Shown piece after piece: positions 13,019 to 41,784 of a stretch of DNA of 44,051 nucleotides (position 1 is the stretch's first letter; each line of letters opens with the position of its first letter). This DNA comes from a virus. Taxonomy: Duplodnaviria > Heunggongvirae > Uroviricota > Caudoviricetes. A program made the position numbers and the translations under genes. The stretch lies in IMG/VR virus record IMGVR_UViG_3300045988_124839. One strand, given 5' to 3'. The notes under the pieces were generated by a model. The model was not told the DNA's origin. It ran no database searches and worked only from the letters and a program-made list of their open reading frames with translations.

Positions 13019-13984
13019 TTAATTATCAGTAGATTGTTCCTCTAGTAACAACTCAATTCTGCTTAGTATTTCTTTAGATATTTTTCGGCTATCAATTTTT
13101 ATAGTTACAAAATTACCTTTATATCTAGCCGTGATCCCTTCCCCATATTTTTTCTCGTCTTTTGTTTTTTCCTCGTCGCCAACCAGAACAGAGTCAGATA
13201 ATATTTGTATAATCCGTGAAGCTTCTAAATCCTCGCCGTTTTTTTTAATTGCCAGAAGATGATGAGCAGCATTGCTCATGGCAGCCATGTTTTTTTTGTA
13301 GACCTTAAACAAAGAATCTCCAGCACGAGCTGACAGTTCTCCTGGATGATTGAAGATAGCTAATATATCTTTTGGTAGACCAGCTGTATTAATACAGCGA
13401 GTGATAATATTTCTGTCTATATTTTCAGCCTCGGCTAATGCTTTAACGTTACCATCAAAGTCATTTAGCTTGCGTAAGTATCTCTTTCCTCTTTCGTATG
13501 CACTAATAGGCCTATAATCGTTACCAATTTGGGATAACCAATGCATCTGTTCATCGTCGAGATCACCTATTAAGACGCGATAGTCACATCCTGTTAATAT
13601 CGCTGCTTTTCTTCTACGTGAGCCGTCAGCGACTTCAACGATTCCAGACACTTTTCTGGCGAAAGCTGGATTTTGTTGTCCAGACGTTAGAAAAGATGGG
13701 ATTAAATCGGCTAGAGAGGATTCATTTAATAAATCTTGATCGCGTTCATTACCTAGCCATACCATTGTTGCCATTTCAACTTTATCTGCGGGAATTGTCT
13801 CTAACTTAAAGTTAACATTACGTCCGCATACTGGCAAAGTTATGCTGTTACCGGTTAATGAACTCAGTTGACGTTTTAAATCACCAACCATAGGTGATAC
13901 GGGCTGATGTTCAGGGGCATGATGATTATTACTCATAATGCGATTAATATCTGGAGCATTTTTTAGAAGAGAGCGCTGTTTCAT
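13019..13984 (-). CDS. sopB: partition protein SopB (ParB-type centromere-binding protein)
   Basis: 321 aa; immediately downstream of and overlapping (ATGA) the ParA-type ATPase gene; size and arrangement as F/N15 sopAB. Confidence 0.85.
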   Translation of the reverse strand: MKQRSLLKNAPDINRIMSNNHHAPEHQPVSPMVGDLKRQLSSLTGNSITLPVCGRNVNFKLETIPADKVEMATMVWLGNERDQDLLNESSLADLIPSFLTSGQQNPAFARKVSGIVEVADGSRRRKAAILTGCDYRVLIGDLDDEQMHWLSQIGNDYRPISAYERGKRYLRKLNDFDGNVKALAEAENIDRNIITRCINTAGLPKDILAIFNHPGELSARAGDSLFKVYKKNMAAMSNAAHHLLAIKKNGEDLEASRIIQILSDSVLVGDEEKTKDEKKYGEGITARYKGNFVTIKIDSRKISKEILSRIELLLEEQSTDN

Positions 13985-15150
13985 TATTCGTTCTCCCAGC
14001 GAGGTTTTATTAGATCATCAAAAATTTCTCGGCAAACAGGGTCCCATATAGAAACAGCATTTCTCCATGCATTCAATGTTGAACGTTGGTTTGCTGCTTG
14101 TTCAAATACTGTTCTCATTTTTATCTGGCCTTTACCTACTTCATCGGTAACGCGTACAACCTGACGTAATACCATTGATCCCCATGTATTTCTTATTTGT
14201 TCTTCCATCCATCGTGATTGATTCCCTGTAGTGAGACTATATTTAGTCAGAAGTAAGCGAACGGTTGGCTCAAATCCACCTAGGTCAACGCTTTCCAATA
14301 GATCGAGAAGCATTGTGAAAAACTGTAGAACAGAAGCGTAATCAAATAATTCTGCAGGTGTAGCAACAACAATAACGTCAGCGGCACAAACAACGTTAAT
14401 GGTTCCTGTACCGAGGTTCGGAGCACTATCTATAACGATAACATCGTAGTTATCCCAAACTGATTCAATAGCTGCGCGCAGCATAAGGTGTGGAGGATGA
14501 GGCAATTTACCCTGAGCATGATATTGCATGAGATCTGTTTCTATACGATGTAAAGCTAGGCAGCTAGGGATAATGTCTAGCCCAGGCCAACATGTTGGCT
14601 TTATAGCATATTCAGCGTTATCGCGTTCTCCTAAGTAAAATGGCAGTAAAGTATCCTCGGCATGGATATGTAAATCAGGAACATAACCGTGATACATAGA
14701 GGCCGTGCCTTGAGGATCGTTACCTTCAACCAAAAGAACACGATGACCTTGTAATGCTAACCATTGAGCTTGATGTACCGCAGACGATGTTTTATAAACG
14801 CCGCCTTTGTGTGACATAACGGCAAGCACAACAGGGTTTTTATCTTGTGGTCGTTGGTTTGGGTTGCCAAAAACTGCTCGCATACTGTTGATTTGATCTA
14901 TGGTATAACCAGCACGACGTTCAATTCTTCCTCTCATTTCAAAGTCAGGTGCAGGTAAACGCCCGCTCTTCTCAGCATCTCTAATTGCTTGAGGAGTTAC
15001 ACCAATTAAATCTGCTACTTCAGTTATACCCCATCGGCGGGTGATACGCCGAGCTTCAGGACTATCATCACCGAATTGAGCGATAGCAATTGCTTGGGTC
15101 ATTTCTTGACCTCTCGTAACACAATCTTGCAATAACTTTTTCAAAGACAT
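13984..15150 (-). CDS. sopA: partition ATPase SopA (ParA, type Ia with N-terminal HTH extension)
   Basis: 388 aa; deviant Walker A MSHKGGVYKTSS; long N-terminal extension typical of type Ia ParA. Confidence 0.9.
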   Translation of the reverse strand: MSLKKLLQDCVTRGQEMTQAIAIAQFGDDSPEARRITRRWGITEVADLIGVTPQAIRDAEKSGRLPAPDFEMRGRIERRAGYTIDQINSMRAVFGNPNQRPQDKNPVVLAVMSHKGGVYKTSSAVHQAQWLALQGHRVLLVEGNDPQGTASMYHGYVPDLHIHAEDTLLPFYLGERDNAEYAIKPTCWPGLDIIPSCLALHRIETDLMQYHAQGKLPHPPHLMLRAAIESVWDNYDVIVIDSAPNLGTGTINVVCAADVIVVATPAELFDYASVLQFFTMLLDLLESVDLGGFEPTVRLLLTKYSLTTGNQSRWMEEQIRNTWGSMVLRQVVRVTDEVGKGQIKMRTVFEQAANQRSTLNAWRNAVSIWDPVCREIFDDLIKPRWENE

Positions 15151-15586: not shown

Positions 15587-15628
15587 ACATAATTCCCCAT
15601 TATACGCGCGTATAATGGGGAATTATGT
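15587..15628. other. telRL: telRL-like telomere resolution site (42-bp perfect palindrome, protelomerase target)
   Basis: ACATAATTCCCCATTATACGCGCGTATAATGGGGAATTATGT is a perfect palindrome; core CCATTATACGCGCGTATAATGG matches the N15 telO core as recalled; 170 bp upstream of telN. Confidence 0.88.
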
Positions 15629-15798: not shown

Positions 15799-17706
15799 AT
15801 GAGCAAAGTAAAAATCGGTGAATTAATAAACTCACTTGTTAGCGATGTTGAGTCAATAGATAACTCTGACCGTCCTCAAGGGGAAAAAACAAAAAAAATA
15901 AAAGCTGTTGCATTAAAATTTAAAAATGCATTATTTAATGACAAGCGAAAGTTTAGGGGGAAAGGATTAGAAAAAAGAATTACAGCCAACACATTCAATG
16001 CCTATATGAGCAGGGCCAGAAAACGGTTTGATGATAAACTTCATCATAGCTTTGAAAAAAATATACATCGCCTATCTGAAAAGTATCCTTTATATAATGA
16101 GGAGCTATTATCATGGCTTTCTCTACCTGCTGCCGATATTCGCCAGAGAATGTCAGCTTTACAGGCAAAATTAAAATTAATTCTCCCTTTATCAGAAGAT
16201 TTATCTAATATCAGAATTGGTGATAACAAAAGTCATAATAAGTTATTAAAATTATCAAATAAATATAAAGAGTGGCAATTCGCCATTTCTGATTTAACTA
16301 GCGATAACTGGAAAGATAAGCGCGATTATTTATATAAATTACTACAGCAAGGATCTGCCTTACTTGAGGAGTTGAATCAGCTAAAAGTTAACCATGAGAT
16401 TCTCTATCATCTTCAACTAAGCCCTGCCGAACGCGCATCTATCCAGCAACGATGGGCAGACGTTCTGCACAATAAGAAACGTAACGTGGTGGTCATTGAT
16501 TACCCTAAATATATGCAAGCTATTTACGATATTATAAATAGCCCTGCTACATTAAATAATCTAAACACTCGTTCAGGTATGGCTCCTTTGGCATTTGCAC
16601 TTGCTGCATTGTCAGGAAGACGAATGATTGAGATTATGTATCAAGGTACATTTACTGTTTCTGGTAAGTATACCGTTGATTTTTTAGGCCAAGCAAAAAA
16701 AAGAACTTCTGATGATATAACCAGAAAAATATATACATTATGCGAAGCAAAAACATTTGTTTATTTAATAAATGTACTTCGCTCATGCCCAGCAGCATCT
16801 GATTTTGATGATGTCGTTAAAGGTTATGGAGATAACGACACACGCTCTGAAAACGGACGGATTAATGCCATATTAGCAAAGGCTTTTAACCCGTGGGTTA
16901 AATCATTTTTCAAAGATGACCGCCGTGTTTATAAAGATAGTCGTGCTATTTATGCCCGTATTGCGTATGAAATGTTTTTCCGCGTAGATCCTCGTTGGAA
17001 AAACGTAGATGAGGATGTTTTCTTTATGGAAATTTTAGGCCATGACGATGAAAACACTCAATTACACTATAAGCAATTCAAGCTGGCCAACTTCTCAAAG
17101 ACATGGAGGCCAAATACTGGAAACGAAAATACCAGGCTGGAAGCATTGCAGCAGCTTGATGACGAAATGCCAGGATTCGCCAGAGGAGATGCCGGAGTTC
17201 GTCTGCATAACACAGTTAAGCAGCTGGTAGAGCAGGACCCCTCTATAAAAATCACGAACAGCACTCTAAGAGCATTCAAATTTAGCCCTACAATGATTAG
17301 TCGATACCTGGAATTTGCTGCTGATGCTCTGGGGCAATTTGTTGGCGAAAATGGACAATGGCAGCTGAAAATAGATTCTCCAGAAATCGTTATGCCTGAC
17401 GAAGAAGAGCTGGAAGCAATACCTGAACAGACGGATGAATTATCAGAGGATGACGATCTGGATGACGACGAAATTGAGATAGAGGAAGAGGAAGAGGAAG
17501 AGGAAGAGGAAGAGAGCGTAGAAGAACAGCAACCGCCCGCGCCTTCTTCACCTGTATCTAAGCCGGTATTTAAGCCTGTGAGAAATATTGGTGATGGCTC
17601 ATACGTTGTTGAGTTTCATTATAATGGCCAGAATTATGCTTGGTCCGGCAGTGCAAACAGCCCTATATCAGCAATGCAGTTAGCATGGCTGACATATTTC
17701 GGATAA
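15799..17706 (+). CDS. telN: protelomerase TelN
   Basis: 635 aa; N-terminus MSKVKIGELIN...RPQG.KTK.IKA...KNALFNDKRKFRGKGL.KRITANTFNAYMSRARKRFDDKLHHSF and much of the body match N15 TelN as recalled; acidic Glu/Asp-rich C-terminal tract; RBS AGGAGAGGAAAG. Confidence 0.95.
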   Translation: MSKVKIGELINSLVSDVESIDNSDRPQGEKTKKIKAVALKFKNALFNDKRKFRGKGLEKRITANTFNAYMSRARKRFDDKLHHSFEKNIHRLSEKYPLYNEELLSWLSLPAADIRQRMSALQAKLKLILPLSEDLSNIRIGDNKSHNKLLKLSNKYKEWQFAISDLTSDNWKDKRDYLYKLLQQGSALLEELNQLKVNHEILYHLQLSPAERASIQQRWADVLHNKKRNVVVIDYPKYMQAIYDIINSPATLNNLNTRSGMAPLAFALAALSGRRMIEIMYQGTFTVSGKYTVDFLGQAKKRTSDDITRKIYTLCEAKTFVYLINVLRSCPAASDFDDVVKGYGDNDTRSENGRINAILAKAFNPWVKSFFKDDRRVYKDSRAIYARIAYEMFFRVDPRWKNVDEDVFFMEILGHDDENTQLHYKQFKLANFSKTWRPNTGNENTRLEALQQLDDEMPGFARGDAGVRLHNTVKQLVEQDPSIKITNSTLRAFKFSPTMISRYLEFAADALGQFVGENGQWQLKIDSPEIVMPDEEELEAIPEQTDELSEDDDLDDDEIEIEEEEEEEEEEESVEEQQPPAPSSPVSKPVFKPVRNIGDGSYVVEFHYNGQNYAWSGSANSPISAMQLAWLTYFG

Positions 17707-18146: not shown

Positions 18147-18683
18147 GCAGCCACCTCGCGCACCGGAATACGGGCAGACAATACCAGGACAAACCGGCTG
18201 GCAAACTGGCGACGAGCTTCCCGTTCAGATGACGCGATGGTGGAAAGATGATGGATGTGTGACTTTTTGTCTGTGCGAACGATTGCCGCAAATTTGAATT
18301 TGAACATGGTATGCACTCCGTTTAATTGGTCGTGCTACCACCAGAGTTCCTACGCTCTATATGGCGGTAGCCCAGACGGGGGTAGGAATACCGGTAAACG
18401 AAGAAACCGGCCAGCTAAAAGCTGCCCCATCTGAGCCACCATAAATTTGGTGTACGCAGATTTTACACACAAAAAAACACGCTGGCGCGTGTTGTGCGCT
18501 TCATTTACTCGGGTTCCTACGCCCGGCTACGGGATTTACCGTAGCGGAGTAAACTTTACCGTCAAAACGACGCGCACGTCAATAATTTGCAAAGACATTT
18601 TACCCCGTGACCAGTCACGGGGACAGGTGTTTTTATAGTTTGCTTGAACGAGTGATCAGAAGTTGATCGTTAATCAAAGGCCA

Positions 18684-19727: not shown

Positions 19728-19919
19728 TTACTCCCCGTTCACCGAAAATTCACGATAGAAACGTTTCCACATACGATAAGTCTGCGCAAATTGTTCACCA
19801 CGAAACATCGCCTTCCTGGCCTTCATGTTTTCCTTGTGAGACTTTCGGTCTATGAACCAAAACCATAGATGGAACACACAAAGCAAGAGACACAAAGATA
19901 ATATCCAATCATTACCCAT
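19728..19919 (-). CDS. small hydrophobic protein (63 aa)
   Basis: Internal ATG at 19919 overlapping the repA stop; hydrophobic segment LSLCLLLCVFHLWFWFI. Confidence 0.35.
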   Translation of the reverse strand: MGNDWILSLCLLLCVFHLWFWFIDRKSHKENMKARKAMFRGEQFAQTYRMWKRFYREFSVNGE

Positions 19920-22900
19920 AGAAAGCGCCCTGCTCTTCGTAGCTGCATGAGCTATTCCCCGTAATGTATTCACGTAACCGCCGCAGCTCATTGCTGGAAA
20001 GGTGATCCATGAACTCTGTGAGGTACAGGGATGCAAACGTCATAGCTATGCTGGCTGATGACCATGATGACATAGTGGCCAACTCCTCACTGGAAAGCGC
20101 ACTCATCGCCCAGGACTCAGGTACAGCCACTGGCAACACGGCCAAAGCCTCAGAAATTACTGAATGAGGGGCGTTTTGAACCTGCTCGTTTGTGGATCGC
20201 GTTTTATCATCCATATATATATTGAGATCCAAATCGCGATCCATTTCGATGGCTGTCTTCTCGGCTTTACGCGTTTTTAGGGTTAGGCCATCTTTCTGAC
20301 GCTGAACAAGAATATCCAGCATAAATGCCGCTGATTCAGGCTCAACAAAACGCAAGGTTGGACGCTTATCGCCGTCTCTGCCGCGACGTTTACCTGTTTT
20401 AAGGCCAAGAGAGTCGCAAATGTTTTTAAACAACGCTTCCGGCACTTTAGGCTTCCCTTTTGGCGTCATAAAACCACCAATGTGCAGAACGTTATTCAAC
20501 AGGTCACGGCGTTCGGCTGTCATGAGGTTATCTCGAGCGAATTTGAGACGCTCCTGAGTCGCCTCGCCGGTCATAGTCTCAGGGTTGATACCGCAGTCGA
20601 TAAAGTACTGCCGGAGAGTTGCTGATTTAAGCGCATAGAAACCGCGCGCCCCGACTTCAACAGTAGGAGTAGCTTTTACCTTGTGATCGATTATTCCAGG
20701 GAATTTAGTTTTAAAGACATCATCAGCCTGCTCGCGAGTCATCGCGGTCACTACAAAATATTGCCACTGTCCCGCCTGACGGTATGCGTAGGTAAAATTG
20801 ATGGCTGCTTCTTCCCGGTCGTAACGACGAGCTGTTACCTCATCTAAAAGCATTGTTTCATAGCGGCGAATTTTGTCTCGAGCACCATCGAAATAGAATT
20901 TTAGCGTGCCTTCTTCAACCGGTAGTTTCAGTTCGTTTTCAATATCCCAGCGGACAAGTTTTGCCTGTTCTTCAAGCGTCAGCGCGCGTTTTTTTAGCAG
21001 TTCTTCACGCTCTGATTCTTGTGGAGTTTCTGTATTGAGGTGCAGATCCAGTGTCTGTTCCCACACAATATCCCGCGCTTCTTTACGCAGATCTTTACCG
21101 ATATCATTCGCAGCATAATCGGTGGCCAGCGGCGATACCTTATAACCGTCGCTGTGCATGATGCAGATCATGTTGCTGGCGTAGTCGTTACGCGCAGTCG
21201 CTTCAATTGCGGCTGCTTTAATTTTCATCCTGGTAAAGTCGGTATTGGCCACCCCCATTGATATACGGTCGCCATCGAAAACGACATCCGTCAGTTCACC
21301 GTTCATACCTGCGGTAGCAAGCAATGCCTGGGCGAATGCTCGTTCTATTTTTTGCGGGTCAGTTTCACGTTTTGCACGAGCTTTATCAAAGCCGATAATA
21401 AATTCTTTCGCTGTACGGTCGCGGCGTAGCATTTGCACTGCGTCGCTGGGTACAACTTCACCACAGAACATGCCGAAATGACGGTCAAAATGTTTTTGCT
21501 CAATCGACACGCCGGATGAAATAGACGGGCTATAAATCAGGCCGTCGTATTTTTTGACCATCTTTTTCGGTTGATTGGTAAATGCTTCAACTTCTGGCTC
21601 TGGTTTGTTTTTCTGGTTTACACACAGAAATTTCTTACCAGGAAAATGCATTCTCAGGGTGGCTGTCACATCTTCTGCAAAGGTGGAGCTGTCGGTGGCC
21701 AACATGATTTTTTCCCCATCCGATACAGCTTTCACCACCTCGGTCATGATGCGATCTTTTTCTGTATAAAAAACCCGGATTGGCTCACCTGTTTCGCGGT
21801 TGCGAACATCAACAGGTAATTCAATTACGTGGATCTGCAGCCATGCCGGTAAACCTAGTTCTTCACGGCGTTTCATAGCCAGTTCAGCCAGGTCAACCAG
21901 CAGATCGTTCGCATCAGCATCTACCATGATTGGGTGTTGTTCCGTTCTGGCCAGCGCGTCAATTAGCGTATTGAATACAGCCACCGGGTTTTCCATAGCC
22001 CGACCGGAAAGAACGGCACGTAGCCCTTGTGTGGCCTCGTCAAAGCCAAAATAGTCGTGCTGGCGCATCAACGGTTGCCAGCAGTTTTTAACAATCGAGT
22101 TTATGCAGATGGTCAGTTTACTGGCGTATGGAGCCATTTCCTGATAGCCAGGATCCTGATAGTGCAGGATATCGGCTTTTACACCTTTTCCTTCTGTCAT
22201 CATTTCCCACAGGCCACCAATAAGGGAGACACGGTGAGCAACAGAGATACCACGTTCTGAGCTATGCATTAACGGTCGTAACAATCCAGTAGATTTGCCG
22301 GAACCCATACCAGCACGGACGATGACTATCCCCTGTAGTGATTGCACGTACTTCAGGACATCATCGGTCATTACCGAAGTTTCAAAACGCTTATAGGTGA
22401 TATGTTGAGGGCGTTTATTGGGATCAGTTATGCGTTCGCTGAAAGAGCGCGGAGCCTGGGCAATACGGCACTTTTTATTCAGGCGACGGGCAATGTGGTC
22501 TTTTACCGTAGCGCGATAGATATTTTCCAGTCCCATTTCACGCAGAACGATGCAGAACATGTTAAATAAATCTGACGGACTGTTAGGAACCGGACAGGTT
22601 AGCATGCCAATATCAACCGCTCTCAGCAGCTCTTTGGCAAAAGTACGACGGTTATCCCGCTTAATTGTCTTCAGGCGGTTGAGCGTCAGAGATAGCAAAT
22701 CAGTACCGGTTTTCAGGCGGTTTGCTGTTGCAAATAGTTGACGTGCTGTTTCACGAAGTCCACGTAGTTTGTGCAGGTCGTTGAAGTCACTGCACTCCAT
22801 TTGCGGATCGTCTTCAAAAGTTGGATAGACGCAGCGGACATCGTTGAATTTCGATAAGATTTCATAGCCAGTCCGCAGGCCTGTATTCCCTTTTCCTTCT

Positions 22901-23907
22901 GTGGCAGATTTCCGGTCATTATCCAGTGCGCAGGTGATTTTTGCCGCCGGGTACATGTTTACCAGTTGTTCCACAACATGAACCATGTTGTTAGCGGATA
23001 CAGCGACAACCACAGCGTCAAAGCGTTTATCTTTTTTCGTGGCAAGCCAGATGGATGCACCAGTAGCAAAACCTTCTGTAACAGCGATGTTTTGCGCCCC
23101 TTTCAGCTCACCGATAACAAAGCAGGCACCGACGAAATCGCCGCTGGTTACTGCGCTGGTCTGGTATTTCCCACCTTGTTTGTCGATTCGCTGCCAACCC
23201 ACAATACGACCATCATAACGACCGTCCAGGTGAGCCAGAGGGATAGCCATATATGTGGTTGGCCCCCGGCTCCATTTCGCACTGTCGTGACTGGTCACGC
23301 GACGCACATCACATGAACTAAAAACGTCACGAATACCTTTTTTAATCGCATATGGCCATGAGCCGTCTTCAGCCGGAGCATGTTCCCACGCGCTGTGGAA
23401 TGCCAGCCATCCCAGCAAACGTTCATGGTCCATTTGGTTGTTTTTCAGGTCATTAATTCGTTTTTGTTCTTCACGGCGACGACGTGCTTCGGCCTGACGT
23501 TCTATTCTTTCCCGTTCTTCTTCCGGTTGTGCGACCACGGTCGCATTATTCCGTTGTTGCTCACGGCGATATTCAGAAAACAGGAAGGAGAAACCGCTCC
23601 ATGAGCCAGCATCGCTGCCTTTATGGACGAAGTTAATGAACGGGTAATCAATCCCTTTGCTGTGTTCCAGCCTGGAGTAAATTTCTACGCGTCCTTTCAG
23701 GCTCTTTTCGAGAGCTTCTGGAGATGTTTTATTGTATGAAGAGTAACGCTCACCCCCCCCGCGAGGGTTGAGTTGGATGTTGTCGGAACAGGCAGGCCAG
23801 TTGATACCAGCCATCTGTGCCAGCTCGGTTAGTTCATCCCGTGCTGCTTCAATTAGCGAGAACGGATCGCTGCCAAAGCGATCCGCATAGAAATCGTTTA
23901 ATGTCAT
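19912..23907 (-). CDS. repA: replication protein RepA (primase-helicase)
   Basis: 1331 aa; Walker A GMGSGKST; size and position (leftward, between telN and cB) as N15 RepA (about 1320 aa). Confidence 0.85.
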   Translation of the reverse strand: MTLNDFYADRFGSDPFSLIEAARDELTELAQMAGINWPACSDNIQLNPRGGGERYSSYNKTSPEALEKSLKGRVEIYSRLEHSKGIDYPFINFVHKGSDAGSWSGFSFLFSEYRREQQRNNATVVAQPEEERERIERQAEARRRREEQKRINDLKNNQMDHERLLGWLAFHSAWEHAPAEDGSWPYAIKKGIRDVFSSCDVRRVTSHDSAKWSRGPTTYMAIPLAHLDGRYDGRIVGWQRIDKQGGKYQTSAVTSGDFVGACFVIGELKGAQNIAVTEGFATGASIWLATKKDKRFDAVVVAVSANNMVHVVEQLVNMYPAAKITCALDNDRKSATEGKGNTGLRTGYEILSKFNDVRCVYPTFEDDPQMECSDFNDLHKLRGLRETARQLFATANRLKTGTDLLSLTLNRLKTIKRDNRRTFAKELLRAVDIGMLTCPVPNSPSDLFNMFCIVLREMGLENIYRATVKDHIARRLNKKCRIAQAPRSFSERITDPNKRPQHITYKRFETSVMTDDVLKYVQSLQGIVIVRAGMGSGKSTGLLRPLMHSSERGISVAHRVSLIGGLWEMMTEGKGVKADILHYQDPGYQEMAPYASKLTICINSIVKNCWQPLMRQHDYFGFDEATQGLRAVLSGRAMENPVAVFNTLIDALARTEQHPIMVDADANDLLVDLAELAMKRREELGLPAWLQIHVIELPVDVRNRETGEPIRVFYTEKDRIMTEVVKAVSDGEKIMLATDSSTFAEDVTATLRMHFPGKKFLCVNQKNKPEPEVEAFTNQPKKMVKKYDGLIYSPSISSGVSIEQKHFDRHFGMFCGEVVPSDAVQMLRRDRTAKEFIIGFDKARAKRETDPQKIERAFAQALLATAGMNGELTDVVFDGDRISMGVANTDFTRMKIKAAAIEATARNDYASNMICIMHSDGYKVSPLATDYAANDIGKDLRKEARDIVWEQTLDLHLNTETPQESEREELLKKRALTLEEQAKLVRWDIENELKLPVEEGTLKFYFDGARDKIRRYETMLLDEVTARRYDREEAAINFTYAYRQAGQWQYFVVTAMTREQADDVFKTKFPGIIDHKVKATPTVEVGARGFYALKSATLRQYFIDCGINPETMTGEATQERLKFARDNLMTAERRDLLNNVLHIGGFMTPKGKPKVPEALFKNICDSLGLKTGKRRGRDGDKRPTLRFVEPESAAFMLDILVQRQKDGLTLKTRKAEKTAIEMDRDLDLNIYMDDKTRSTNEQVQNAPHSVISEALAVLPVAVPESWAMSALSSEELATMSSWSSASIAMTFASLYLTEFMDHLSSNELRRLREYITGNSSCSYEEQGAFYG

Positions 23908-24152: not shown

Positions 24153-24749
24153 TCATCTACCCTCAACCATGAATGATTTGATCGTTCCGACTATTTGGTG
24201 AACAAATTCAAGATCGCTTTTCCTGAAGATGGCGCGTTGTGAGTTTGTTCCATCCAGATAGTAATTTTCATCATCAAAACGGGCCAGGCGCTGGATAGTG
24301 ATATTTCCTGCAGTATCACGAACCAGAACATCCTCGCCGGGGACCAGTTCCAGCGCAGAATCGACCAGGAGAAAATCGCCTGGCTGATAGTTTCCCTGCG
24401 TAAGATTGCTGATAGTTAACGCATACACAGTATTGCGCTGGCTGATGAATGGCAGGAATCGCTCAGTATTTGGAACCTGTCCCGGCTTCCACTCTTCATC
24501 CGGCCCACTTTCAGTTGTGCCAATAACAGGAATGCGATCAGGATCATATTCTGTCCCATATAGCACCCAATGCACTGGCTTGCGTAAGCACTTAGCCAGG
24601 GCAATACCTATCTCCAGTGACGGCATTACGTCGCCACGTTCTAAGTTTTGGACGCCTGCTATAGAGATATCGACAGCCTCAGCAACTTCTCGCAACGTCA
24701 GCTTCATCTCTAAACGGCGTGCTTTCAGTCGTTCGCCTCGTGTTTTCAT
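24153..24749 (-). CDS. cB: CI-like prophage repressor (N-terminal HTH, C-terminal S24/LexA-like domain)
   Basis: 198 aa; N-terminal HTH (LTLREVAEAVDISIAGVQNLERG); C-terminal region resembles LexA/CI S24 fold; divergent from a cro-like gene across an operator-like spacer. Confidence 0.75.
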   Translation of the reverse strand: MKTRGERLKARRLEMKLTLREVAEAVDISIAGVQNLERGDVMPSLEIGIALAKCLRKPVHWVLYGTEYDPDRIPVIGTTESGPDEEWKPGQVPNTERFLPFISQRNTVYALTISNLTQGNYQPGDFLLVDSALELVPGEDVLVRDTAGNITIQRLARFDDENYYLDGTNSQRAIFRKSDLEFVHQIVGTIKSFMVEGR

Positions 24750-24813: not shown

Positions 24814-24840
24814 TTGTTGTTTATTGTTTATAATAACAAC

Positions 24841-25062
24841 ATGAAACCAGAAGAACTTATTCGCCACTTTGGCAGTGTAGAAAAAGCAGCGGCAGGGGTA
24901 GGTGTAACACCCGGAGCTGTTTACCAATGGTTAACCGCTGGAGAGATTCCTTCATTGCGGCAAAGCGATATTGAAGTTCGTACTGCTTATAAGCTGAAGA
25001 GTGACTTTACAACTCGGCGGGTAAAGCAGTCGATTAAGGAGAGTCGTCAGCGTGGAGCTTGA
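24841..25062 (+). CDS. cro: Cro-like HTH regulator
   Basis: 73 aa from the internal ATG at 24841 (ORF track starts at 24814); HTH GSVEKAAAGVGVTPGAVYQW; divergent from the repressor gene. Confidence 0.6.
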   Translation: MKPEELIRHFGSVEKAAAGVGVTPGAVYQWLTAGEIPSLRQSDIEVRTAYKLKSDFTTRRVKQSIKESRQRGA

Positions 25063-25762
25063 GTATATACGCAGCTGCGTCTCTACGGCATTGGCTGATG
25101 TTCATTATCGCCAGCGTGGCATTCTGGAGGTCCAGCTTGAGCAGATGCGTCTCGGTAGGTCAGGACGGTTTAACAATAAACCAGTCCGGTCAATCAGTGT
25201 GGGGGATGATAACTCATACGAAGTGTCCGTTCCTGCTGAGCCGGTTAGATTCCACCAGGGGAAAACATTTAAACAATCATCAATGTTGCTCACTGATATT
25301 GATTTTCAGAGCGCCAGCTGGCGCAGGGCTATTGGTCAGTTGAATAACGAGGAATCAGCCTGGCTTTATTATTGCTACGGATGCAAGCCTGATTACAACA
25401 ATGATGTGATTGTTTGTCAGTGGTTATGGCTTGATTTTCTGGTTGCTCATTCGGGGGGCGGCTTAAAAAAAATGAAGGCCTCCACGAAAAAAGCCATGCG
25501 GAAATTGATTTATTACGCGGCACAGCAGGTTAAATCAGAACTTACGTGTGCTGAGGCAGTTGATGAGAGAGAACAGGACAGGCATCTGAGTTTTCTACTG
25601 AATATATCTATTGATAGCTGGAGACAAGATTATAAAGAACGTTGGCTTTTAATTAAGTCGCGATGTCTGAGCTTAAATCGAACTGCATTATTAAATGCGG
25701 CGGAGAAGCGCAGTGAAATCATCAAACGCCATCGGGCAGGAAGTGCCATTCTGCCTTTGTAA
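25052..25762 (+). CDS. hypothetical protein (236 aa), candidate regulator downstream of cro
   Basis: GTG start overlapping the cro 3' end; no recognisable motif; any Q-like antiterminator role is inferred from position only. Confidence 0.45.
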   Translation: MELEYIRSCVSTALADVHYRQRGILEVQLEQMRLGRSGRFNNKPVRSISVGDDNSYEVSVPAEPVRFHQGKTFKQSSMLLTDIDFQSASWRRAIGQLNNEESAWLYYCYGCKPDYNNDVIVCQWLWLDFLVAHSGGGLKKMKASTKKAMRKLIYYAAQQVKSELTCAEAVDEREQDRHLSFLLNISIDSWRQDYKERWLLIKSRCLSLNRTALLNAAEKRSEIIKRHRAGSAILPL

Positions 25763-25769
25763 ACAAGTT

Positions 25770-26015
25770 ATGTTCAGGAAACCGTCGAAGCCAGAATTAA
25801 GGTATTCGGGGGTAAGAAATGAATATGTTATCTGGTGTCCAACTTGTGGTTACAGGACACGACCAGATAGTAATAAGCAGTCTGTAATTGCCGATTGGTA
25901 TTTATCAAATCAGCCAGGTAATAAGCATATAGAAAATCTTTGGATTAAGCGTTACTTGGAAATCAGAGAGGGTGCGACCGTGGTCGCACAAGAAAATGAA
26001 AATAACGCCATTTAA
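25770..26015 (+). CDS. small zinc-ribbon-like protein
   Basis: From the internal ATG at 25770; CPTCGY motif; the 3' end contains centromere-like palindrome 1. Confidence 0.35.
   Translation: MFRKPSKPELRYSGVRNEYVIWCPTCGYRTRPDSNKQSVIADWYLSNQPGNKHIENLWIKRYLEIREGATVVAQENENNAI
25972..25989. other. SopB-binding-like centromere palindrome 1 (GTGCGACC-GT-GGTCGCAC)
   Basis: 8-bp inverted arms around a 2-bp centre, same architecture as the F sopC core TGGGACC-AC-GGTCCCA; one of four copies in the window. Confidence 0.7.
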
Positions 26016-30350: not shown

Positions 30351-30515
30351 ATTATAGCCTCCATATCCATAAAATACACTAAAACAAGAAAACAACGCAA
30401 ATTAAAAATTTCACTAAAAAGCGAAAAATAACACTGGATGTGTTCGTTTGGCAGAGTTACAGTTCGTGTCATTGAGGGGCAATAACCCACTAACTATATG
30501 AATTTGGAGGATATT

Positions 30516-30737
30516 ATGAATTATCAAGGTAACGAAAAAATGCGCGACGACGTTGCGGAGATAGCTAACGAACTGTATGAGTTGTGGCAGAAGGTTGAGC
30601 GTTTCGAAAAGGAATATGGTTTCAACAGTACCAACCTAACAGACCGACTGGCTGGTCGCTTAGTTGGGACTATGGGGCCAAAACTGGCTGAGTTGAACCG
30701 CTTTATGGCTGATGTTGATTTCCAGTTTCAAGATTGA
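30516..30737 (+). CDS. hypothetical protein (73 aa)
   Basis: GGAGG RBS 6 nt before the ATG at 30516 (ORF track starts at 30498). Confidence 0.45.
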   Translation: MNYQGNEKMRDDVAEIANELYELWQKVERFEKEYGFNSTNLTDRLAGRLVGTMGPKLAELNRFMADVDFQFQD

Positions 30738-30750
30738 TTAGAGAGGCGTT

Positions 30751-30978
30751 ATGAATATTAATGAAATTCGTGGAAATATGACTGAAGCGGCCCTGAGTGT
30801 GGAATGTGTTATGCGTGGATACCCACGCATTTCCCTGAAAGAGTTAAGCGAAGCCTGTTTTTTGAGTCAAGCTGCCGTTGAATTTATCATCGAACAGATG
30901 ATCTGTTTTGGGGTTGCAAAGCGTAGCGGATCTGGTCGATATTCTTTGACCGATGAATATAAGCAGGCAACTTTCTAA
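30751..30978 (+). CDS. hypothetical protein (75 aa, possible HTH)
   Basis: AGAGAGG RBS; ends 5 bp before centromere-like palindrome 2. Confidence 0.45.
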   Translation: MNINEIRGNMTEAALSVECVMRGYPRISLKELSEACFLSQAAVEFIIEQMICFGVAKRSGSGRYSLTDEYKQATF

Positions 30979-30983
30979 AAGCT

Positions 30984-31001
30984 GTGCGACCACGGTCGCA
31001 C
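30984..31001. other. SopB-binding-like centromere palindrome 2 (GTGCGACC-AC-GGTCGCAC)
   Basis: Same 8-2-8 palindrome as site 1 with the centre inverted; about 20 bp upstream of a putative promoter. Confidence 0.7.
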
Positions 31002-31020
31002 AGCACAAAAACGAAAAAGC

Positions 31021-31049
31021 TTGGCAAAATGACGGTTTTTAGTTATTGT
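31021..31049 (+). promoter_or_regulatory. putative sigma70 promoter (candidate late promoter, PR'-like)
   Basis: TTGGCA, 17-bp spacer, TATTGT; followed within about 60 nt by a hairpin and an intrinsic terminator, as in lambda PR'-qut-tR'. Confidence 0.3.
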
Positions 31050-31087
31050 TTTGTTAAGTTGGGTTTTTTGTACCCAACAGCCAACAA

Positions 31088-31110
31088 GCCGCCTTTATGG
31101 CGGTTTTTTT
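31088..31110 (+). terminator. rho-independent terminator (tR'-like)
   Basis: GCCGCC-TTTAT-GGCGG followed by TTTTTTT; upstream of the methylase and lysis genes. Confidence 0.6.
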
Positions 31111-31200
31111 GTGCCTGAAAAGTGGGCGCAGGACAAGTTGCAGCTTGTCCTGCGGTCAACCCATGCCAGAGCTATAGGCTGAACCTAAAGCCCACCCGCG

Positions 31201-32322
31201 ATGCGCATCGCCGGGTTAGCTTACCCAGGCAAAAAAATAATAGCTATGTTCAAAACCACTAATATTCATGGCGCACAACTCGTTTGCGCAGATTCTCTGC
31301 AATTTATCAAAACCATCCCTGATAACTCGGTCAATTTGATTGCAACAGACCCACCATACTTCGGCGTAAAAGCTAACGCATGGGATAACCAGTGGGATAG
31401 CGATGCTGACTTTTTGGGGTGGATTGACGAATTTTTGGCAGAATTTTGGCGGATATTGGCCCCTAATGGCAGCCTGTATATGTTTACCGGCTCTCGCCTT
31501 GCGTCAAAAATTGAATTATTAACTCGCGACCGTTTCAATGTTCTGAACCATATCATTTGGGCTAAACCCAGTGGTATGTGGCGCGGTTGTCATAAAGAAA
31601 GTTTAAGGGCTTATTTTCCTGCTACTGAAAGAATATTATTTGCAGAGCATTACGGCGCGTCAGGTTATGCTAAAGGTCAGTCAGGTTATGCTTCAAAATG
31701 TGCAGATTTAAGAAAAAATATTTTTTCTCCACTAATTGATGCTTTTTCGCTGGCTCGCCGTCAGTTAGATATATCAGCCGCAGACATTAATTCAGCGACA
31801 GGAAAGCAGATGTGTTCACACTGGTTTTCTTATTCGCAGTGGCGGCTTCCATCATTAATTGATTTTAATAAACTATGCGAATTATTTCGCAGGAAGGCAG
31901 ATTCACTCGGTGTCCCGTGTCCATATCCTTTTAATGTTGATTATTCAGAACATGAAAAGCGTTATAGCGTTCTGAAATTGCATTATGAGGAAGTAAAGAA
32001 GCAGTATGATGATTTGAAGGCTCAGTATGAAAATTTACGCCGTCCATTTCATGTTACTGCTGATGTACCTTATACCGATGTATGGGAGTTTCCTCCTGTG
32101 CAATATTATCCTGGCAAGCACCCATGTGAAAAACCTGCAGCGATGATGGAACATATTATAAAGAGTAGTTCACGCCCCGGAGATATCGTTGCCGATTTCT
32201 TTATGGGATCAGGCTCAACTATTAAAGCTGCGCTGAAGTTAGGACGTCAGGCAATAGGTATTGAGATTGAGGGCGAACGTTATCTTCAGACAGTTGATGA
32301 AGTGAAAAAGTTATTTGAGTAA
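31201..32322 (+). CDS. DNA N6-adenine methyltransferase (beta class)
   Basis: DPPY catalytic motif (NLIATDPPYFGV) N-terminal to the AdoMet motif FxGxGS (DFFMGSGST); alternative start at ATG 31246. Confidence 0.85.
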   Translation: MRIAGLAYPGKKIIAMFKTTNIHGAQLVCADSLQFIKTIPDNSVNLIATDPPYFGVKANAWDNQWDSDADFLGWIDEFLAEFWRILAPNGSLYMFTGSRLASKIELLTRDRFNVLNHIIWAKPSGMWRGCHKESLRAYFPATERILFAEHYGASGYAKGQSGYASKCADLRKNIFSPLIDAFSLARRQLDISAADINSATGKQMCSHWFSYSQWRLPSLIDFNKLCELFRRKADSLGVPCPYPFNVDYSEHEKRYSVLKLHYEEVKKQYDDLKAQYENLRRPFHVTADVPYTDVWEFPPVQYYPGKHPCEKPAAMMEHIIKSSSRPGDIVADFFMGSGSTIKAALKLGRQAIGIEIEGERYLQTVDEVKKLFE

Positions 32323-32417
32323 CTGGAGAATATATTCCCCTGCCGTTTTTGGTAGGGGTTATTTTCGCCATATAGTTTCCAAGCCGAAACCTCAGCAACT
32401 ATTGCGAGGTAAGAGAT

Positions 32418-32690
32418 ATGAAGATGGATGAACGATACAGCAGTGCATCTTATGGTAGCGCTGGTCTTGCTGCGTTCTTTGCCAGCCTGTCATTGCAGGA
32501 TTGGGGCTTCATTATCGGTGTCGCGTTCAGCATTATCCTCGGTGTGCTTACATACCGGCTCAATAAACGCGAGCAGATGAAGCGCACGAAGATATTGCAG
32601 GACATATTGGATAAAACTAATACCAATAATCTTTCTGCTACAGCGATGGTTATTGGAGAGCTGGGGAAGAGAGCACCGAAGGAAATATGA
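32418..32690 (+). CDS. class II holin (S21-like pinholin) with dual-start motif
   Basis: Begins MKM (two in-frame starts separated by Lys); two transmembrane segments ([12 protein letters not shown] / [18 protein letters not shown]); charged C-terminus; directly upstream of endolysin. Confidence 0.7.
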
Positions 32691-33187
32691 TGCAGTCATC
32701 ATTACGCAAAGCTGTCACAGCTGCTATTGGTGGCGGGGCTATTGCCATAGCGTCTATGCTCATCACTGGCCCAAGTGGTAACGATGGTCTGGAAGGTGTC
32801 AGTTACATACCATACAAAGATATTGTTGGCGTATGGACTGTATGTCACGGACACACCGGAAAAGACATCATGCTCGGTAAAACGTATACCGAAGCAGAAT
32901 GCAAAGCCCTCCTGAATAAAGACCTTGCCACGGTTGCCAGACAAATTAACCCGTACATCAAAGTCGATATACCGGAAACAACGCGCGGCGCTCTTTACTC
33001 GTTCGTCTACAACGTGGGTGCTGGCAATTTCAGAACATCGACGCTTCTTCGCAAAATAAACCAGGGCGATATTAAAGGCGCATGTGACCAGCTACGTCGC
33101 TGGATATACGCTGGCGGTAAGCAATGGAAAGGCCTGATGACTCGTCGTGAGATTGAGCGTGAAGTCTGTTTGTGGGGGCAACAATGA
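32687..33187 (+). CDS. endolysin (T4-lysozyme-like, GH24) with N-terminal SAR signal-anchor
   Basis: Weakly hydrophobic Gly/Ala-rich N-terminus [18 protein letters not shown]; catalytic Glu-8aa-Asp-5aa-Thr pattern ([18 protein letters not shown]); ATGA overlap with holin stop. Confidence 0.88.
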
Positions 33188-33621
33188 GCAGAGTAACCGC
33201 GATTATCTCCGCTCTGGTTATCTGCATCATCGTCTGCCTGTCGTGGGCGGTCAATCATTACCGTGATAACGCCATCGCCTACAAAGAGCAGCGCGATAAA
33301 GCCACATCCACAATCGCTGATATGCAGAAGCGTCAACGTGACGTAGCAGAACTCGATGCCAGATATACAAAGGAGCTTGCTGATGCTAACGCGACTATCG
33401 AAAGCCTCCGTGCTGATGTTTCTGCTGGGCGTAAGCGCCTGCAAGTCGCCGCCACCTGTGCAAAGTCAACGACCGGAGCCAGCGGCATGGGCAATGGAGA
33501 AAGCCCAAGACTTACAGCAGATGCTGAACTCAATTATTACCGTCTCCGAAGTGGGATCGACAGGATAACTGCGCAGGTTAACTACTTGCAGGAATACATC
33601 AAGACGCAATGCCTGAATTAA
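33184..33621 (+). CDS. Rz: i-spanin Rz
   Basis: ATG overlaps the endolysin stop; N-terminal transmembrane segment [23 protein letters not shown] then coiled-coil; lambda Rz-like sequence. Confidence 0.8.
33356..33568 (+). CDS. Rz1: o-spanin Rz1 (lipoprotein embedded in Rz, +1 frame)
   Basis: Embedded ORF with lipobox LLGVSAC followed by a Pro-rich segment ([13 protein letters not shown]); true start may be the internal Met at 33383. Confidence 0.6.
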
Positions 33622-33993: not shown

Positions 33994-34011
33994 TTGCGAC
34001 CGTGGTCGCAC
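33994..34011. other. SopB-binding-like centromere palindrome 3 (TTGCGACC-GT-GGTCGCAC)
   Basis: 8-2-8 palindrome with one mismatch at the first base. Confidence 0.65.
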
Positions 34012-34213: not shown

Positions 34214-34231
34214 GTGCGACCGTGGTCGCAC
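34214..34231. other. SopB-binding-like centromere palindrome 4 (GTGCGACC-GT-GGTCGCAC)
   Basis: Perfect copy of the site-1 sequence, 23 bp upstream of the cassette gene start. Confidence 0.7.
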
Positions 34232-40484: not shown

Positions 40485-41784
40485 TCTCCCGCATATTGCC
40501 AGCATGGCCTTTAATGAGCCGCTGATGCTTGAACCCGCCTATGCGCGGGTTTTCTTTTGTGCGCTTGCAGGCCAGCTAGGGATCAGCCGCCTGACGGATG
40601 CGGTGTCCGGCGACAGCCTGACTGCCCAGGAGGCACCCGCGACGCTGGCGTTAGCCGGTGATGGTGACGGACCACGACAGGCCCGCAGTTATCAGGTCAT
40701 GAACGGCATCGCCGTGCTGCCGGTGTCCGGTACGCTGGTCAGCCGGACGCGGGCGCTGCAGCCTTATTCGGGGATGACCGGTTACAACGGCATTATCGCC
40801 CGTCTGCAACAGGCTGCCAGTGACCCGATGGTGGACGGCATTCTGCTCGATATGGACACGCCCGGTGGAATGGTGGCAGGGGCATTTGACTGCGCTGACA
40901 TCATCGCCCGTGTGCGTGACATAAAACCTGTATGGGCGCTGGCCAACGACATGAACTGCAGTGCAGGTCAGCTGCTTGCCAGCGCCGCCTCCCGGCGTCT
41001 GGTCACGCAGACCGCCCGGACAGGCTCCATCGGCGTCATGATGGCTCACAGTAATTACGGTGCTGCGCTGGAGAAACAGGGCGTGGAAATCACGCTGATT
41101 TACAGCGGCAGCCATAAGGTGGATGGCAACCCCTACAGCCATCTTCCGGATGACGTCCGGGAGACACTGCAGTCCCGGATGGACGCAACCCGTCAGATGT
41201 TTGCGCAGAAGGTGTCGGCATATACCGGCCTGTCCGTGCAGGCTGTGCTGGATACCGAGGCTGCAGTGTACAGCGGTCAGGAGGCCATTGATGCCGGACT
41301 GGCTGATGAACTTGTTAACAGCACCGATGCGATCACCGTCATGCGTGATGCACTGGATGCACGTAAATCCCGTCTCTCAGGAGGGCGAATGACCAAAGAG
41401 ACTCAATCAACAACTGTTTCAGCCACTGCTTCGCAGGCTGACGTTACTGACGTGGTGCCAGCGACGGAGGGCAAAAACGCCAGCGCGGCGCAGCCGGATG
41501 TGAACGCGCAGATCACCGCAGCGGTTGCGGCAGAAAACAGCCGCATTATGGGGATCCTCAGCTGTGAGGAGGCTCACGGACGCGAAGAACAGGCCCGCGT
41601 GCTGGCAGAAACCCCCGGTATGACCGTGGAAACGGCCCGCCGTATTCTGGCCGCAGCACCACAGAGTGCACAGGCGCGCAGTGACACTGCGCTGGATCGT
41701 CTGATGCAGGGGGCACCGGCACCGCTGGCTGCAGGTAACCCGGCATCTGATGCCGTTAACGATTTGCTGAACACACCAGTGTAA
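40465..41784 (+). CDS. C: head maturation protease / scaffold C
   Basis: GTG start (VTAELRNLPHIASMAFNEP...) gives 439 aa as lambda gpC; the ORF-track entry from 40351 is an upstream extension overlapping B. Confidence 0.88.
41179..41784 (+). CDS. Nu3: scaffolding protein Nu3 (in-frame nested start within C)
   Basis: In-frame ATG at 41179, about 201 codons before the C stop; inferred from the known nested C/Nu3 arrangement in lambda, start not verified. Confidence 0.4.
   Translation: MDATRQMFAQKVSAYTGLSVQAVLDTEAAVYSGQEAIDAGLADELVNSTDAITVMRDALDARKSRLSGGRMTKETQSTTVSATASQADVTDVVPATEGKNASAAQPDVNAQITAAVAAENSRIMGILSCEEAHGREEQARVLAETPGMTVETARRILAAAPQSAQARSDTALDRLMQGAPAPLAAGNPASDAVNDLLNTPV

Follow-up and report, generated by a model that had tools for sequence, protein, structure and literature searches.

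The segment at positions 30981-31110 of a 44,051-nucleotide stretch of viral DNA (IMG/VR record IMGVR_UViG_3300045988_124839, Caudoviricetes; the whole stretch is called the window below) carries, in this order, a palindrome, GCTGTGCGACC-AC-GGTCGCACAGC (30981-31004; 11+2+11, 100% complementary), a -35 element, TTGGCA (31021-31026, + strand), a -10 element, TATTGT, 17 bp after it (31044-31049, +), a hairpin of 7 pairs, GUUGGGU/ACCCAAC, near the 5' end of the predicted RNA (31058-31078, +), and an intrinsic terminator, AAGCCGCC-TTTAT-GGCGGTTT (31086-31110, +), with its stem at 31086-31106 and seven T at 31104-31110. Downstream are the genes for a DNA methylase (31246-32322, +; Pfam N6_N4_Mtase, 1e-46), with its ATG at 31246, a holin (32418-32690, +; phage holin families, below curated cut-offs), a lysozyme (32687-33187, +; Phage_lysozyme, 2e-45), and Rz (33172-33621, +; Phage_lysis, 8e-37). 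A first-pass annotation of the same DNA had described the palindrome, the promoter TTGGCA-17-TATTGT, the hairpin, and the terminator with its seven T, upstream of methylase and lysis genes, and all four are found where it had placed them. We propose, with a probability of about 0.8, that 30981-31110 controls the late operon of an N15-like linear plasmid-prophage, by means of Q antitermination and with a role for the palindrome as a SopB site.

The stretch 30400-31300 is 99.1% identical to Escherichia phages YDC107_1 and PhiR46_1 (genus Ravinvirus), and about 75-78% identical to Klebsiella phage phiKO2. In a more sensitive search, the late-control region was found to be 83.5% identical to that of N15 over 276 bp. 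Judged by its gene map and by these identities, the window is an N15-like (Ravinvirus-type) linear plasmid-prophage. The GenBank record of N15 (AF064539) has a minus_35_signal (41162-41167), a minus_10_signal, and a "putative rho-indep. transcription terminator" (41229-41250) at the orthologous bases upstream of gene 52. The record of phiKO2 (AY374448) has orthologous minus_35 and minus_10 signals as well, and it labels these features "putative late promoter" and "terminator" (45489-45510), and the palindrome "putative plasmid partitioning site". The late-control structure itself is thus already known, because the orthologous element of N15 and phiKO2 has been annotated and studied experimentally. 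What the comparison of sequences adds is the apparent generality of the centromere-promoter-Q arrangement across palindrome types, and the leader RNA between the terminator and the methylase gene. YDC107_1, the closest GenBank record, lists coding sequences alone, and our analysis places the putative late promoter, its terminator, Q, and five centromere sites in the window. A paper on telomere phages (PMC12042878) contains no transcription data, and in a preprint (bioRxiv 2024.03.26.585537) N15 is used merely as a tool.

TTGGCA-17-TATTGT matches 9 of 12 consensus positions and is a putative sigma-70-type promoter, conserved across clades, directly upstream of the late genes (methylase, holin, lysozyme, Rz). 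From promoter geometry, the predicted transcription start is at about A31056 (+), 7 nt after the -10 element, and we number from this base below. The TTG of the -35 element is kept in most clades examined (TTGGCA, TTGCAA, TTGATA, TTGCTA, TTGCCA); the exceptions are locus L057, which has TAGGCA, and locus L131, which has no clear TTG. The -10 element varies among relatives (TATTGT, TATCTT, TATCAT, TACTGT, TATGAT, and others), and its TAnnnT is kept at a constant distance of 5 nt from a TAAGTT motif in nearly all of them. TAAGTT was itself considered as the true -10 element and ruled out, since neither N15 nor the window has a hexamer resembling a -35 element 16-18 bp before that motif. A conserved sequence upstream of the -10 element, TTTTTAGG, is found only in phages of the N15 and phiKO2 types and is a further candidate element.

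Two sets of relatives were used to judge conservation. The first, from a pattern scan of viral contigs together with BLAST matches, gave 27 distinct relatives (alignment A2). Its pattern demanded GTTGG and GGCGGTTTTTTTNTGCC, and because bases fixed by a pattern cannot be judged for conservation in the set that it selects, a second set was retrieved by means of the methylase protein, which gave 26 distinct N15-like upstream regions. Nearly all relatives have the order palindrome, -35 element, 17-bp spacer, -10 element, 5 nt, TAnGYT-GG(G/C), hairpin, and terminator. Among those retrieved with the methylase, the exceptions are L129, which has no palindrome, and L179, in which the palindrome is farther upstream. 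The -35 element, -10 element, hairpin, and terminator are kept across phages of the N15, phiKO2, and PY54 types, in spite of divergence in the spacer, in the linker, and even within the hexamers. Note that MAFFT with RNAalifold on mixed clades was unusable for the hairpin and the leader, as the alignment slips by 1 nt between clades. Per-sequence folding was used instead for the hairpin, and covariance-model alignment for the leader.

The 5' hairpin was identified by RNA folding and conservation. Folded sequence by sequence, it forms in 28/28 distinct variants, with changes between G-C and G.U and between U-A and U.G, and with one swap of G-C to C-G. Its 3' arm reads CCCAAC, CCUGAC, CCCGAC, CCAGC, GCUAAC, GCCGAC, or GUCAAC, all of which pair with the 5' arm, often via G.U. 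In L179, GTTGG has become GCTGG, and the 3' arm compensates for the change (T-to-C/A-to-G). The G.U pairs in this hairpin show that the constraint acts on the RNA of the + strand, and this conservation at the RNA level is a new point of the present analysis. The conserved hairpin starts at +1 to +3, that is, 0-2 nt from the predicted start. This position fits a protective hairpin at the 5' end, and it supports the assignment of the start site.

The terminator, equivalent to lambda tR', has a stem of 8 pairs, 5 of them G-C, and is orthologous to the annotated terminators of N15 and phiKO2. It had been placed in the first-pass annotation about 40 nt past the start. The terminator is indeed there, and its position can be given more closely, with the stem beginning at about +31 and the T run ending at +55. 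The 55-nt RNA 31056-31110 folds into exactly two hairpins, with a free energy of -23.3 kcal/mol (z = -5.5), and none of 200 shuffled sequences folds as well. The predicted terminated RNA would have about 52-55 nt and would be the counterpart of lambda 6S RNA. In 30900-31330, no Rfam family was found at its gathering threshold, either for the short RNA or for the leader; the best matches below threshold were AgrB, with 27 bits (gathering 40), and ctRNA_pGA1, with 23 bits (gathering 45).

Which protein would act on this promoter? A gene for a Q antiterminator of the phage 82 family, with 236 aa, lies at 25052-25762 (+) and overlaps the end of cro. The protein matches Pfam PF06323 (Phage_antiter_Q) over residues 2-229 of 236, with E = 2e-83 and 279.8 bits vs a cut-off of 25, and it also matches PHROG 304. 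It is 66% identical to gp40 of N15, labeled "late transcription activator" in GenBank, and a tblastn comparison with the Q gene of phage 82 (X92588) gave 28% identity over 93% of the query, with E = 9e-21. Q proteins fall into three unrelated families, of which PF06323 represents Q82 (PMC9388147), and a structure search for this Q and for PF06323 found no solved member. The earlier observation that no Q homologue is adjacent to the promoter is borne out, as the Q gene was found 5.3 kb upstream. Two sources for a Q had been suggested by position, the 236-aa protein after cro and the small open reading frames (ORFs) just before the palindrome. The PF06323 match settles on the former, and the small ORFs at 30498-30978 were rejected, as gp50 has no Pfam match and gp51 has weak matches below cut-off (PCI, winged helix-turn-helix).

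The distance from the Q stop at 25762 to the -35 element at 31021 is 5.26 kb, with about 15 ORFs between, and the arrangement is alike in N15, phiKO2, and PY54. On the + strand between cro-Q and 31021, no other pair of promoter and terminator was found. Therefore, the pair described here is the only evident target of Q, which presumably acts in trans on this late promoter, 5.26 kb downstream of its gene. To our knowledge, only in N15-like phages is an antiterminator known to act on a promoter that lies kilobases from the antiterminator gene, with partition sites at both ends of the gap.

Q proteins load on polymerase that is paused by sigma-70 at an early-transcribed -10-like element, and the start of the predicted transcript contains two candidates for such an element. 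One is TAAGTTGGG (31055-31063, +), which consists of a hexamer resembling a -10 element, at -1 to +5, and then GGG, and which we regard as a candidate sigma-70-dependent pause element. The general form TAnGYT-GG(G/C) at -1 to +8, TAAGTT-GGG in the window, has a lambda-like geometry; lambda has AACGAT at +1 to +6, before its GGG. The 26 distinct N15-like loci, which were retrieved independently of the motif, all have T(-1), A(+1), G(+3), and T(+5). These bases may also, or instead, form part of the Q-binding region. The other candidate is the T-rich hairpin loop at +9 to +14, where the pause element of phage 82 pR' also lies; this segment reads GATTTTTACGCC in N15 and GATATTTTGCC in phage 82. 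In lambda, the GGG at +7 to +9 follows the -10-like element and the pause is at +16, and in phage 82, the element occupies +9 to +14, GCC comes next at +15 to +17, and polymerase pauses at +25 (PMC5001585). That the hairpin loop holds the pause element in all of these phages was ruled out, since the key A is absent in the lineage of the window, in phiKO2, and in several other relatives. We know of no consensus for the binding sites of Q82-family proteins. Among the Q families, Q82 alone has neither a structure nor a defined binding site, and the conserved promoter-proximal sequences described here provide candidate elements for it.

The likeness to N15 extends through the whole order of gp51, palindrome, -35 element, -10 element, hairpin, terminator, leader, methylase, second terminator, and holin, and N15 has the same kind of Q, also located after cro. 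The two differ in the -10 element (TATCTT in N15, TATTGT in the window), in the 3' arm of the hairpin (CCUGAC vs CCCAAC), in its loop (ATTTTT vs TTTTTT), in the center of the palindrome (-64.5 vs -63.5), and in the number of palindromes, which is four in N15 and five in the window. In phiKO2, as in the window, partition sites are found within repA, shortly after Q (183 bp in phiKO2), beside the late promoter, and downstream of the lysis region; however, the motif of phiKO2 is TATGTT instead of TAAGTT, and its leader belongs to another sequence clade.

With lambda PR'-qut-tR', the window shares a promoter, a -10-like element and GGG at the start of the transcript, a terminator before the first late gene, and, by our reading, read-through by Q (PMC9388147, PMC5001585). 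However, the Q of the window is of the unrelated 82 family and is encoded 5.3 kb from the promoter, whereas the lambda Q gene is adjacent, and a partition site adjoins the promoter in the window but not in lambda. The terminated RNA of the window would have about 54 nt, whereas lambda 6S RNA has 194 nt. The first-pass suggestion that the segment mirrors PR'-qut-tR' gains support from the Q gene, from the conservation, from the annotation of N15 and phiKO2, and from a cassette in a lambdoid contig, L163.

The pR' region of phage 82 is alike in its Q family and in its layout of -10 element, +1, T-rich segment at +9 to +14, and then a G+C-rich triplet. In the 82-like phage PhiR47_2, we located a promoter with TTGCAA as its -35 and TATATT as its -10 element, an A at +1, and TGaTATTTT-GCC, whose last base is +17. 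Between the -10 element and +17, both included, PhiR47_2 reads TATATT-TTATGT-AAATCTGATATTTTGCC and N15 reads TATCTT-TTTTCT-AAGTTGGGATTTTTACGCC. Phage 82 differs in that its pause element TGaTATTTT is well defined, with the pause at +25, and in that it has no centromere site; in PhiR47_2, the first terminator-like hairpin is farther downstream than in the window.

The palindrome beside the promoter had been called a centromere palindrome, and the comparison with N15 and the partition-site label in phiKO2 agree with that. The N15 sequence that aligns with 30981-31004 is the IR3 oligonucleotide f3t (PMC7205306, Table 4). By this alignment, 30981-31004 is the orthologue of N15 IR3 and a putative SopB-binding site; IR1-IR4 of N15 are SopB-binding centromere sites with a role in partition (cited in PMC7205306). 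The 18-bp core of the palindrome, GTGCGACCACGGTCGCAC (30984-31001), is centered at -63.5. The distance from the palindrome to the -35 element, put at about 20 bp in the first-pass annotation, is in fact 16 nt if all 24 bp are counted as the palindrome, and 19 nt if it is measured from the core. The pattern GTGCGACCNNGGTCGCAC, with at most 3 mismatches, has 5 copies in the window, with starts at 23529, 25972, 30984, 33994, and 34214, vs 0.21 expected, and none of 100 shuffles reaches 5. The flanks of the palindromes in the window match the IR1, IR2, and IR3 oligonucleotides of N15, and the cognate sopA and sopB genes are on the same replicon. One palindrome is inside repA (23529-23546). The second (25972-25989), 210 bp after the Q stop, resembles the IR2 oligonucleotide and is the equivalent of N15 IR2. 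The last two (33994-34011 and 34214-34231) are 220 bp apart, after the lysis genes. The IR2-equivalent palindrome falls within the 3' end of an ORF at 25695-26015 (+), which overlaps the end of Q and encodes a Lar-like restriction alleviation protein (PHROG 6795, E = 1.5e-45; the Pfam match to Lar_restr_allev is weak).

Palindromes of three sequence types, TGCGACC, TGGGACC, and GGGGCC (cores GCGACC, GGGACC, and GGGGCC), adjoin the promoter in the relatives. The TGCGACC palindromes of the N15/phiKO2 type are centered at -63.5 (+/-1) in 23 distinct sequences, and the TGGGACC palindromes of the PY54 type at -52.5 (+/-1) in 10. The palindrome of L131, GTGGGGCCATGGCCCCAC, is centered at -65.5, and that of L179, CGTGGGACCGTGGTCCCACG, at -95.5, each in 1 distinct sequence. 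In contig coordinates, L131 has AGTGGGGCCATGGCCCCACT at about 438-457 and L179 has CGTGGGACCGTGGTCCCACG at about 382-401, so that different palindromes stand before the same late promoter. Comparison of these two loci with the others suggests that the sequence of the partition site has been exchanged while its position was kept. The centers at -52.5, -63.5, and -95.5 differ by about whole helical turns, and -65.5 is off. Given L131 and the loci L057/L129, which have no nearby palindrome, a strict rule of helical phase is only partly upheld, and the phasing is suggestive only.

The site after Q is also kept, at 210 bp in the window, 183 bp in phiKO2, and 230 bp in PY54. The presence of sites beside Q and beside the distant promoter in three clades fits bridging by the partition complex, although it falls short of proof, and the paired centromere sites may compensate for the distance between Q and the promoter. 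Since this pairing is conserved in phages of the N15, phiKO2, and PY54 types despite the change in site sequence, it generalizes the published observation on N15, and it makes a dependence on phase testable.

We suggest the following mechanism for the late-control region. Host sigma-70 polymerase would start at TTGGCA-17-TATTGT, at about A31056, and the nascent RNA would form the 5' hairpin at 31058-31078. Without a phage factor, transcription would stop at the terminator, 31086-31110, to give an RNA of about 54 nt, like the 6S RNA of lambda. During lytic growth, Q produced from the cro-Q operon would load on polymerase paused close to the promoter, and the modified polymerase would then resist both this terminator and the one after the methylase gene. 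Read-through would reach the methylase, the lysis genes, and, after circularization, the virion genes. Through the partition complex at the equivalents of IR3 and IR2, the remote Q gene is likely brought close to the promoter on which Q would act; alternatively, SopB could have a direct effect on polymerase at the promoter. For N15, Ravin, Rech and Lane are said to have found in 2008 that late expression under Q is enhanced by the Sop proteins and by the IR sites close to Q and to the late promoter. For the window, we infer the start site, the pause site, the Q-binding element, the dependence on Q, and the direction and mechanism of the SopB effect. Only tentatively would we go further and regard SopB or ParB as a genuine co-factor of late transcription, acting by its position, in telomere phages as a whole. 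The site has stayed beside the late promoter through at least two changes of its own sequence. If the protein is such a co-factor, the partition complex would deliver Q, or the locus that produces it, to the promoter, or would contact polymerase from one face of the helix.

Several observations weigh against the reading proposed here. The region has 8 promoter-like matches vs 6.0 +/- 2.2 in shuffled sequences, so that TTGGCA-17-TATTGT alone is within chance expectation; because such matches are not enriched, our promoter call relies on conservation instead. TATTGT is a weak -10 element and lacks an extended -10 motif. The CCGCC/GGCGG stem of the terminator is invariant in the relatives, an invariance that was partly built in by the search pattern. 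The segment at +9 to +14 lacks the critical A (the -11 equivalent) in the window, where it is TTTTTT, and in phiKO2, and the pause element may be either of the two candidates, at the lambda-like or at the phage-82-like position. Locus L057/L129 (1 distinct sequence) has the promoter and terminator with no palindrome within 110 bp. Finally, the Q gene is not immediately upstream of the promoter, as it is in the 'Q cassette' of lambdoid phages. With a promoter match that chance could provide, and a terminator that stands about 110 nt past the gp51 stop and would halt read-through from upstream too, one could argue that the terminator mainly ends gp50-gp51 transcription and that TTGGCA-17-TATTGT is fortuitous or a minor constitutive promoter, with no control by Q here. 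We consider this quite improbable, since three clades with divergent spacers have retained the hexamers, their 17-bp spacing, and a fixed distance from them to the transcribed motif, and since a Q gene is present that has no other promoter-plus-terminator target nearby. Furthermore, the authors of the N15 and phiKO2 records annotated a late promoter, and a lambdoid phage carries the same cassette directly after Q and PR'.

What SopB would do at the promoter can also be read in the opposite sense. The site occupies -72 to -55 (-61 to -44 in the PY54 type), in the zone where the C-terminal domain of the polymerase alpha subunit (alpha-CTD) binds, and ParB-family proteins, whose spreading PMC7205306 discusses, spread and silence nearby genes. 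SopB on the palindrome might then repress the late promoter in the lysogen, by occlusion of the UP element and alpha-CTD or by spreading, as a safety lock through which lytic functions would be coupled to maintenance of the plasmid. However, the title of the 2008 N15 study of Ravin et al. states that Sop facilitates late gene expression, and a lambda-type PR' is constitutive and controlled at the terminator, so that a repressor would be needless. We therefore think repression unlikely, although the two effects could be compatible, with repression in the lysogen and help after induction. Slightly less likely, in our view, is a function in lysogens for the terminated RNA of about 54 nt, as a small RNA that the hairpin and terminator would serve in addition to late control. 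It resembles an Hfq-type small RNA in its layout, in which a linker of about 9 nt, single-stranded, joins a 5' hairpin to a terminator hairpin with a U tail. There is a precedent in StxS of Shiga-toxin phages (PMC7547250), a small RNA that derives from the short PR' transcript and arises as a side product where late transcription is controlled at a terminator. However, the RNA of the window is only predicted; the linker, which would be its seed region, varies between clades (CAGCCAACAAG, CUUCCGAAUAA, CACCAUCAUAA, UCACAUCAUCAA); no Rfam family matches at threshold, with isrK at merely 14 bits; and it has no known target.

Between the terminator and the methylase ATG is a structured leader RNA of about 135 nt (31108-31246, +), which is outside 30981-31110. 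Its sequence is highly conserved, and its covariation, with compensatory changes, is strong. Its helices are P0 (31112-17/31226-31), P1 (31122-27/31190-95), P2 (31128-37/31144-53), P3 (31165-67/31177-79), and P4 (31195-31201/31208-15). The apical loop of P4 is palindromic, U-GCGC-A (UGCGCA) in the window and GUGCAC in the L159 group. A covariance model of these five helices, R1, was built only from sequences of the phiKO2 and PY54 types; it matches the window with 63.7 bits (E = 3.6e-13) and also every locus of the N15 type. Pairing is found in 93.5% of cells, vs 76.1% in shuffles and 30-47% when the partners are slid. Changes on both sides are seen for 20/32 pairs in the R1 alignment and for 28/32 in the independent set retrieved with the methylase. 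P1, P2, and P4 are robust, and P0 and P3 are weaker. In PY54 (L190), the P2 hairpin of the leader, GTGGGACCGTGGTCACAG (41120-41137), resembles the phage's own centromere palindrome with 3 mismatches; the likeness may be fortuitous, or the sequence may serve as an additional weak ParB site.

The leader motif precedes homologous methylases in non-telomere phages as well (E = 1e-8 to 1e-12) and, more weakly, a Com-like zinc-ribbon ORF (PF10122) together with a methylase. Since it occurs with methylases outside telomere phages, the leader belongs to the methylase cassette and not to the Q mechanism. It would be part of the read-through transcript, with translational control, stability, and ligand sensing as possible roles. 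The leader is a candidate new cis-regulatory RNA, and as such a separate lead on the control of phage methylases; that it defines a new class of such RNAs for phage DNA methylases is an idea that we hold with the same reserve as the general co-factor role of SopB. The Com-like ORF has 36 aa and is directly upstream of the methylase in L140, L141, L174, L180, and L182 (at about 530-640), with a PF10122 match of 24.6 bits vs a cut-off of 22.9. This layout is like that of com upstream of mom in phage Mu. In the L142-L158 group, which consists of Pasteurellaceae-like contigs, an ORF at about 480-620 that ends just before the methylase (...LSNENCEFLLTQFEIAGFVAKQGNSYMRTA) resembles, by eye, the C-terminal part of gp51 (30751-30978), which suggests that a gp51-like gene may travel with the methylase.

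The lambdoid contig L163 has, in order, a lambda-family Q (PF03589, E = 8e-29), TTGCAT-17-TATTAT, a -10-like ATAGT-GGG, a terminator ending in GGGGTTTTTTTATGCCTGAAA, a leader RNA, and a homologous methylase. Its T run and the following ATGCCTGAAA are homologous to GGCGGTTTTTTTGTGCCTGAAAA of the window. Because the cassette is found here after a lambda-family Q, it holds the slot of the first late gene after tR' in phages with different Q families. This position agrees with the identification of 31021-31110 as the equivalent of PR' and tR'.

A second terminator-like feature (32337-32376, +), in which the hairpin CCCCTGCCG-TTTT-TGGTAGGGG (32337-32358) precedes a T-rich tail, lies between the methylase and holin genes. 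N15 and phiKO2 have an annotated terminator at the same place, and the methylase is thus bracketed by two terminators. The hairpin overlaps a promoter-like sequence, TTGGTA-16-TATAGT.

The rest of the gene map is that of an N15-like replicon. sopB (13019-13984, - strand) encodes the centromere-binding protein (Pfam PF18090, SoPB_HTH, E = 7e-25) and is followed by sopA (13984-15150), whose product matches ParA-type ATPase families. A telomere palindrome of 42 bp (15587-15628) is followed by the genes for protelomerase (15799-17706), RepA (19912-23907), the repressor (24153-24749), and Cro (24814-25062). Downstream of the protelomerase gene, two Rfam matches at gathering score adjoin each other, C4 antisense RNA (18360-18446, -; 73.6 bits) and isrK (18472-18545, -; 62.5 bits). 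This pair is presumably the control region of the anti-repressor (immA) of N15-type phages.

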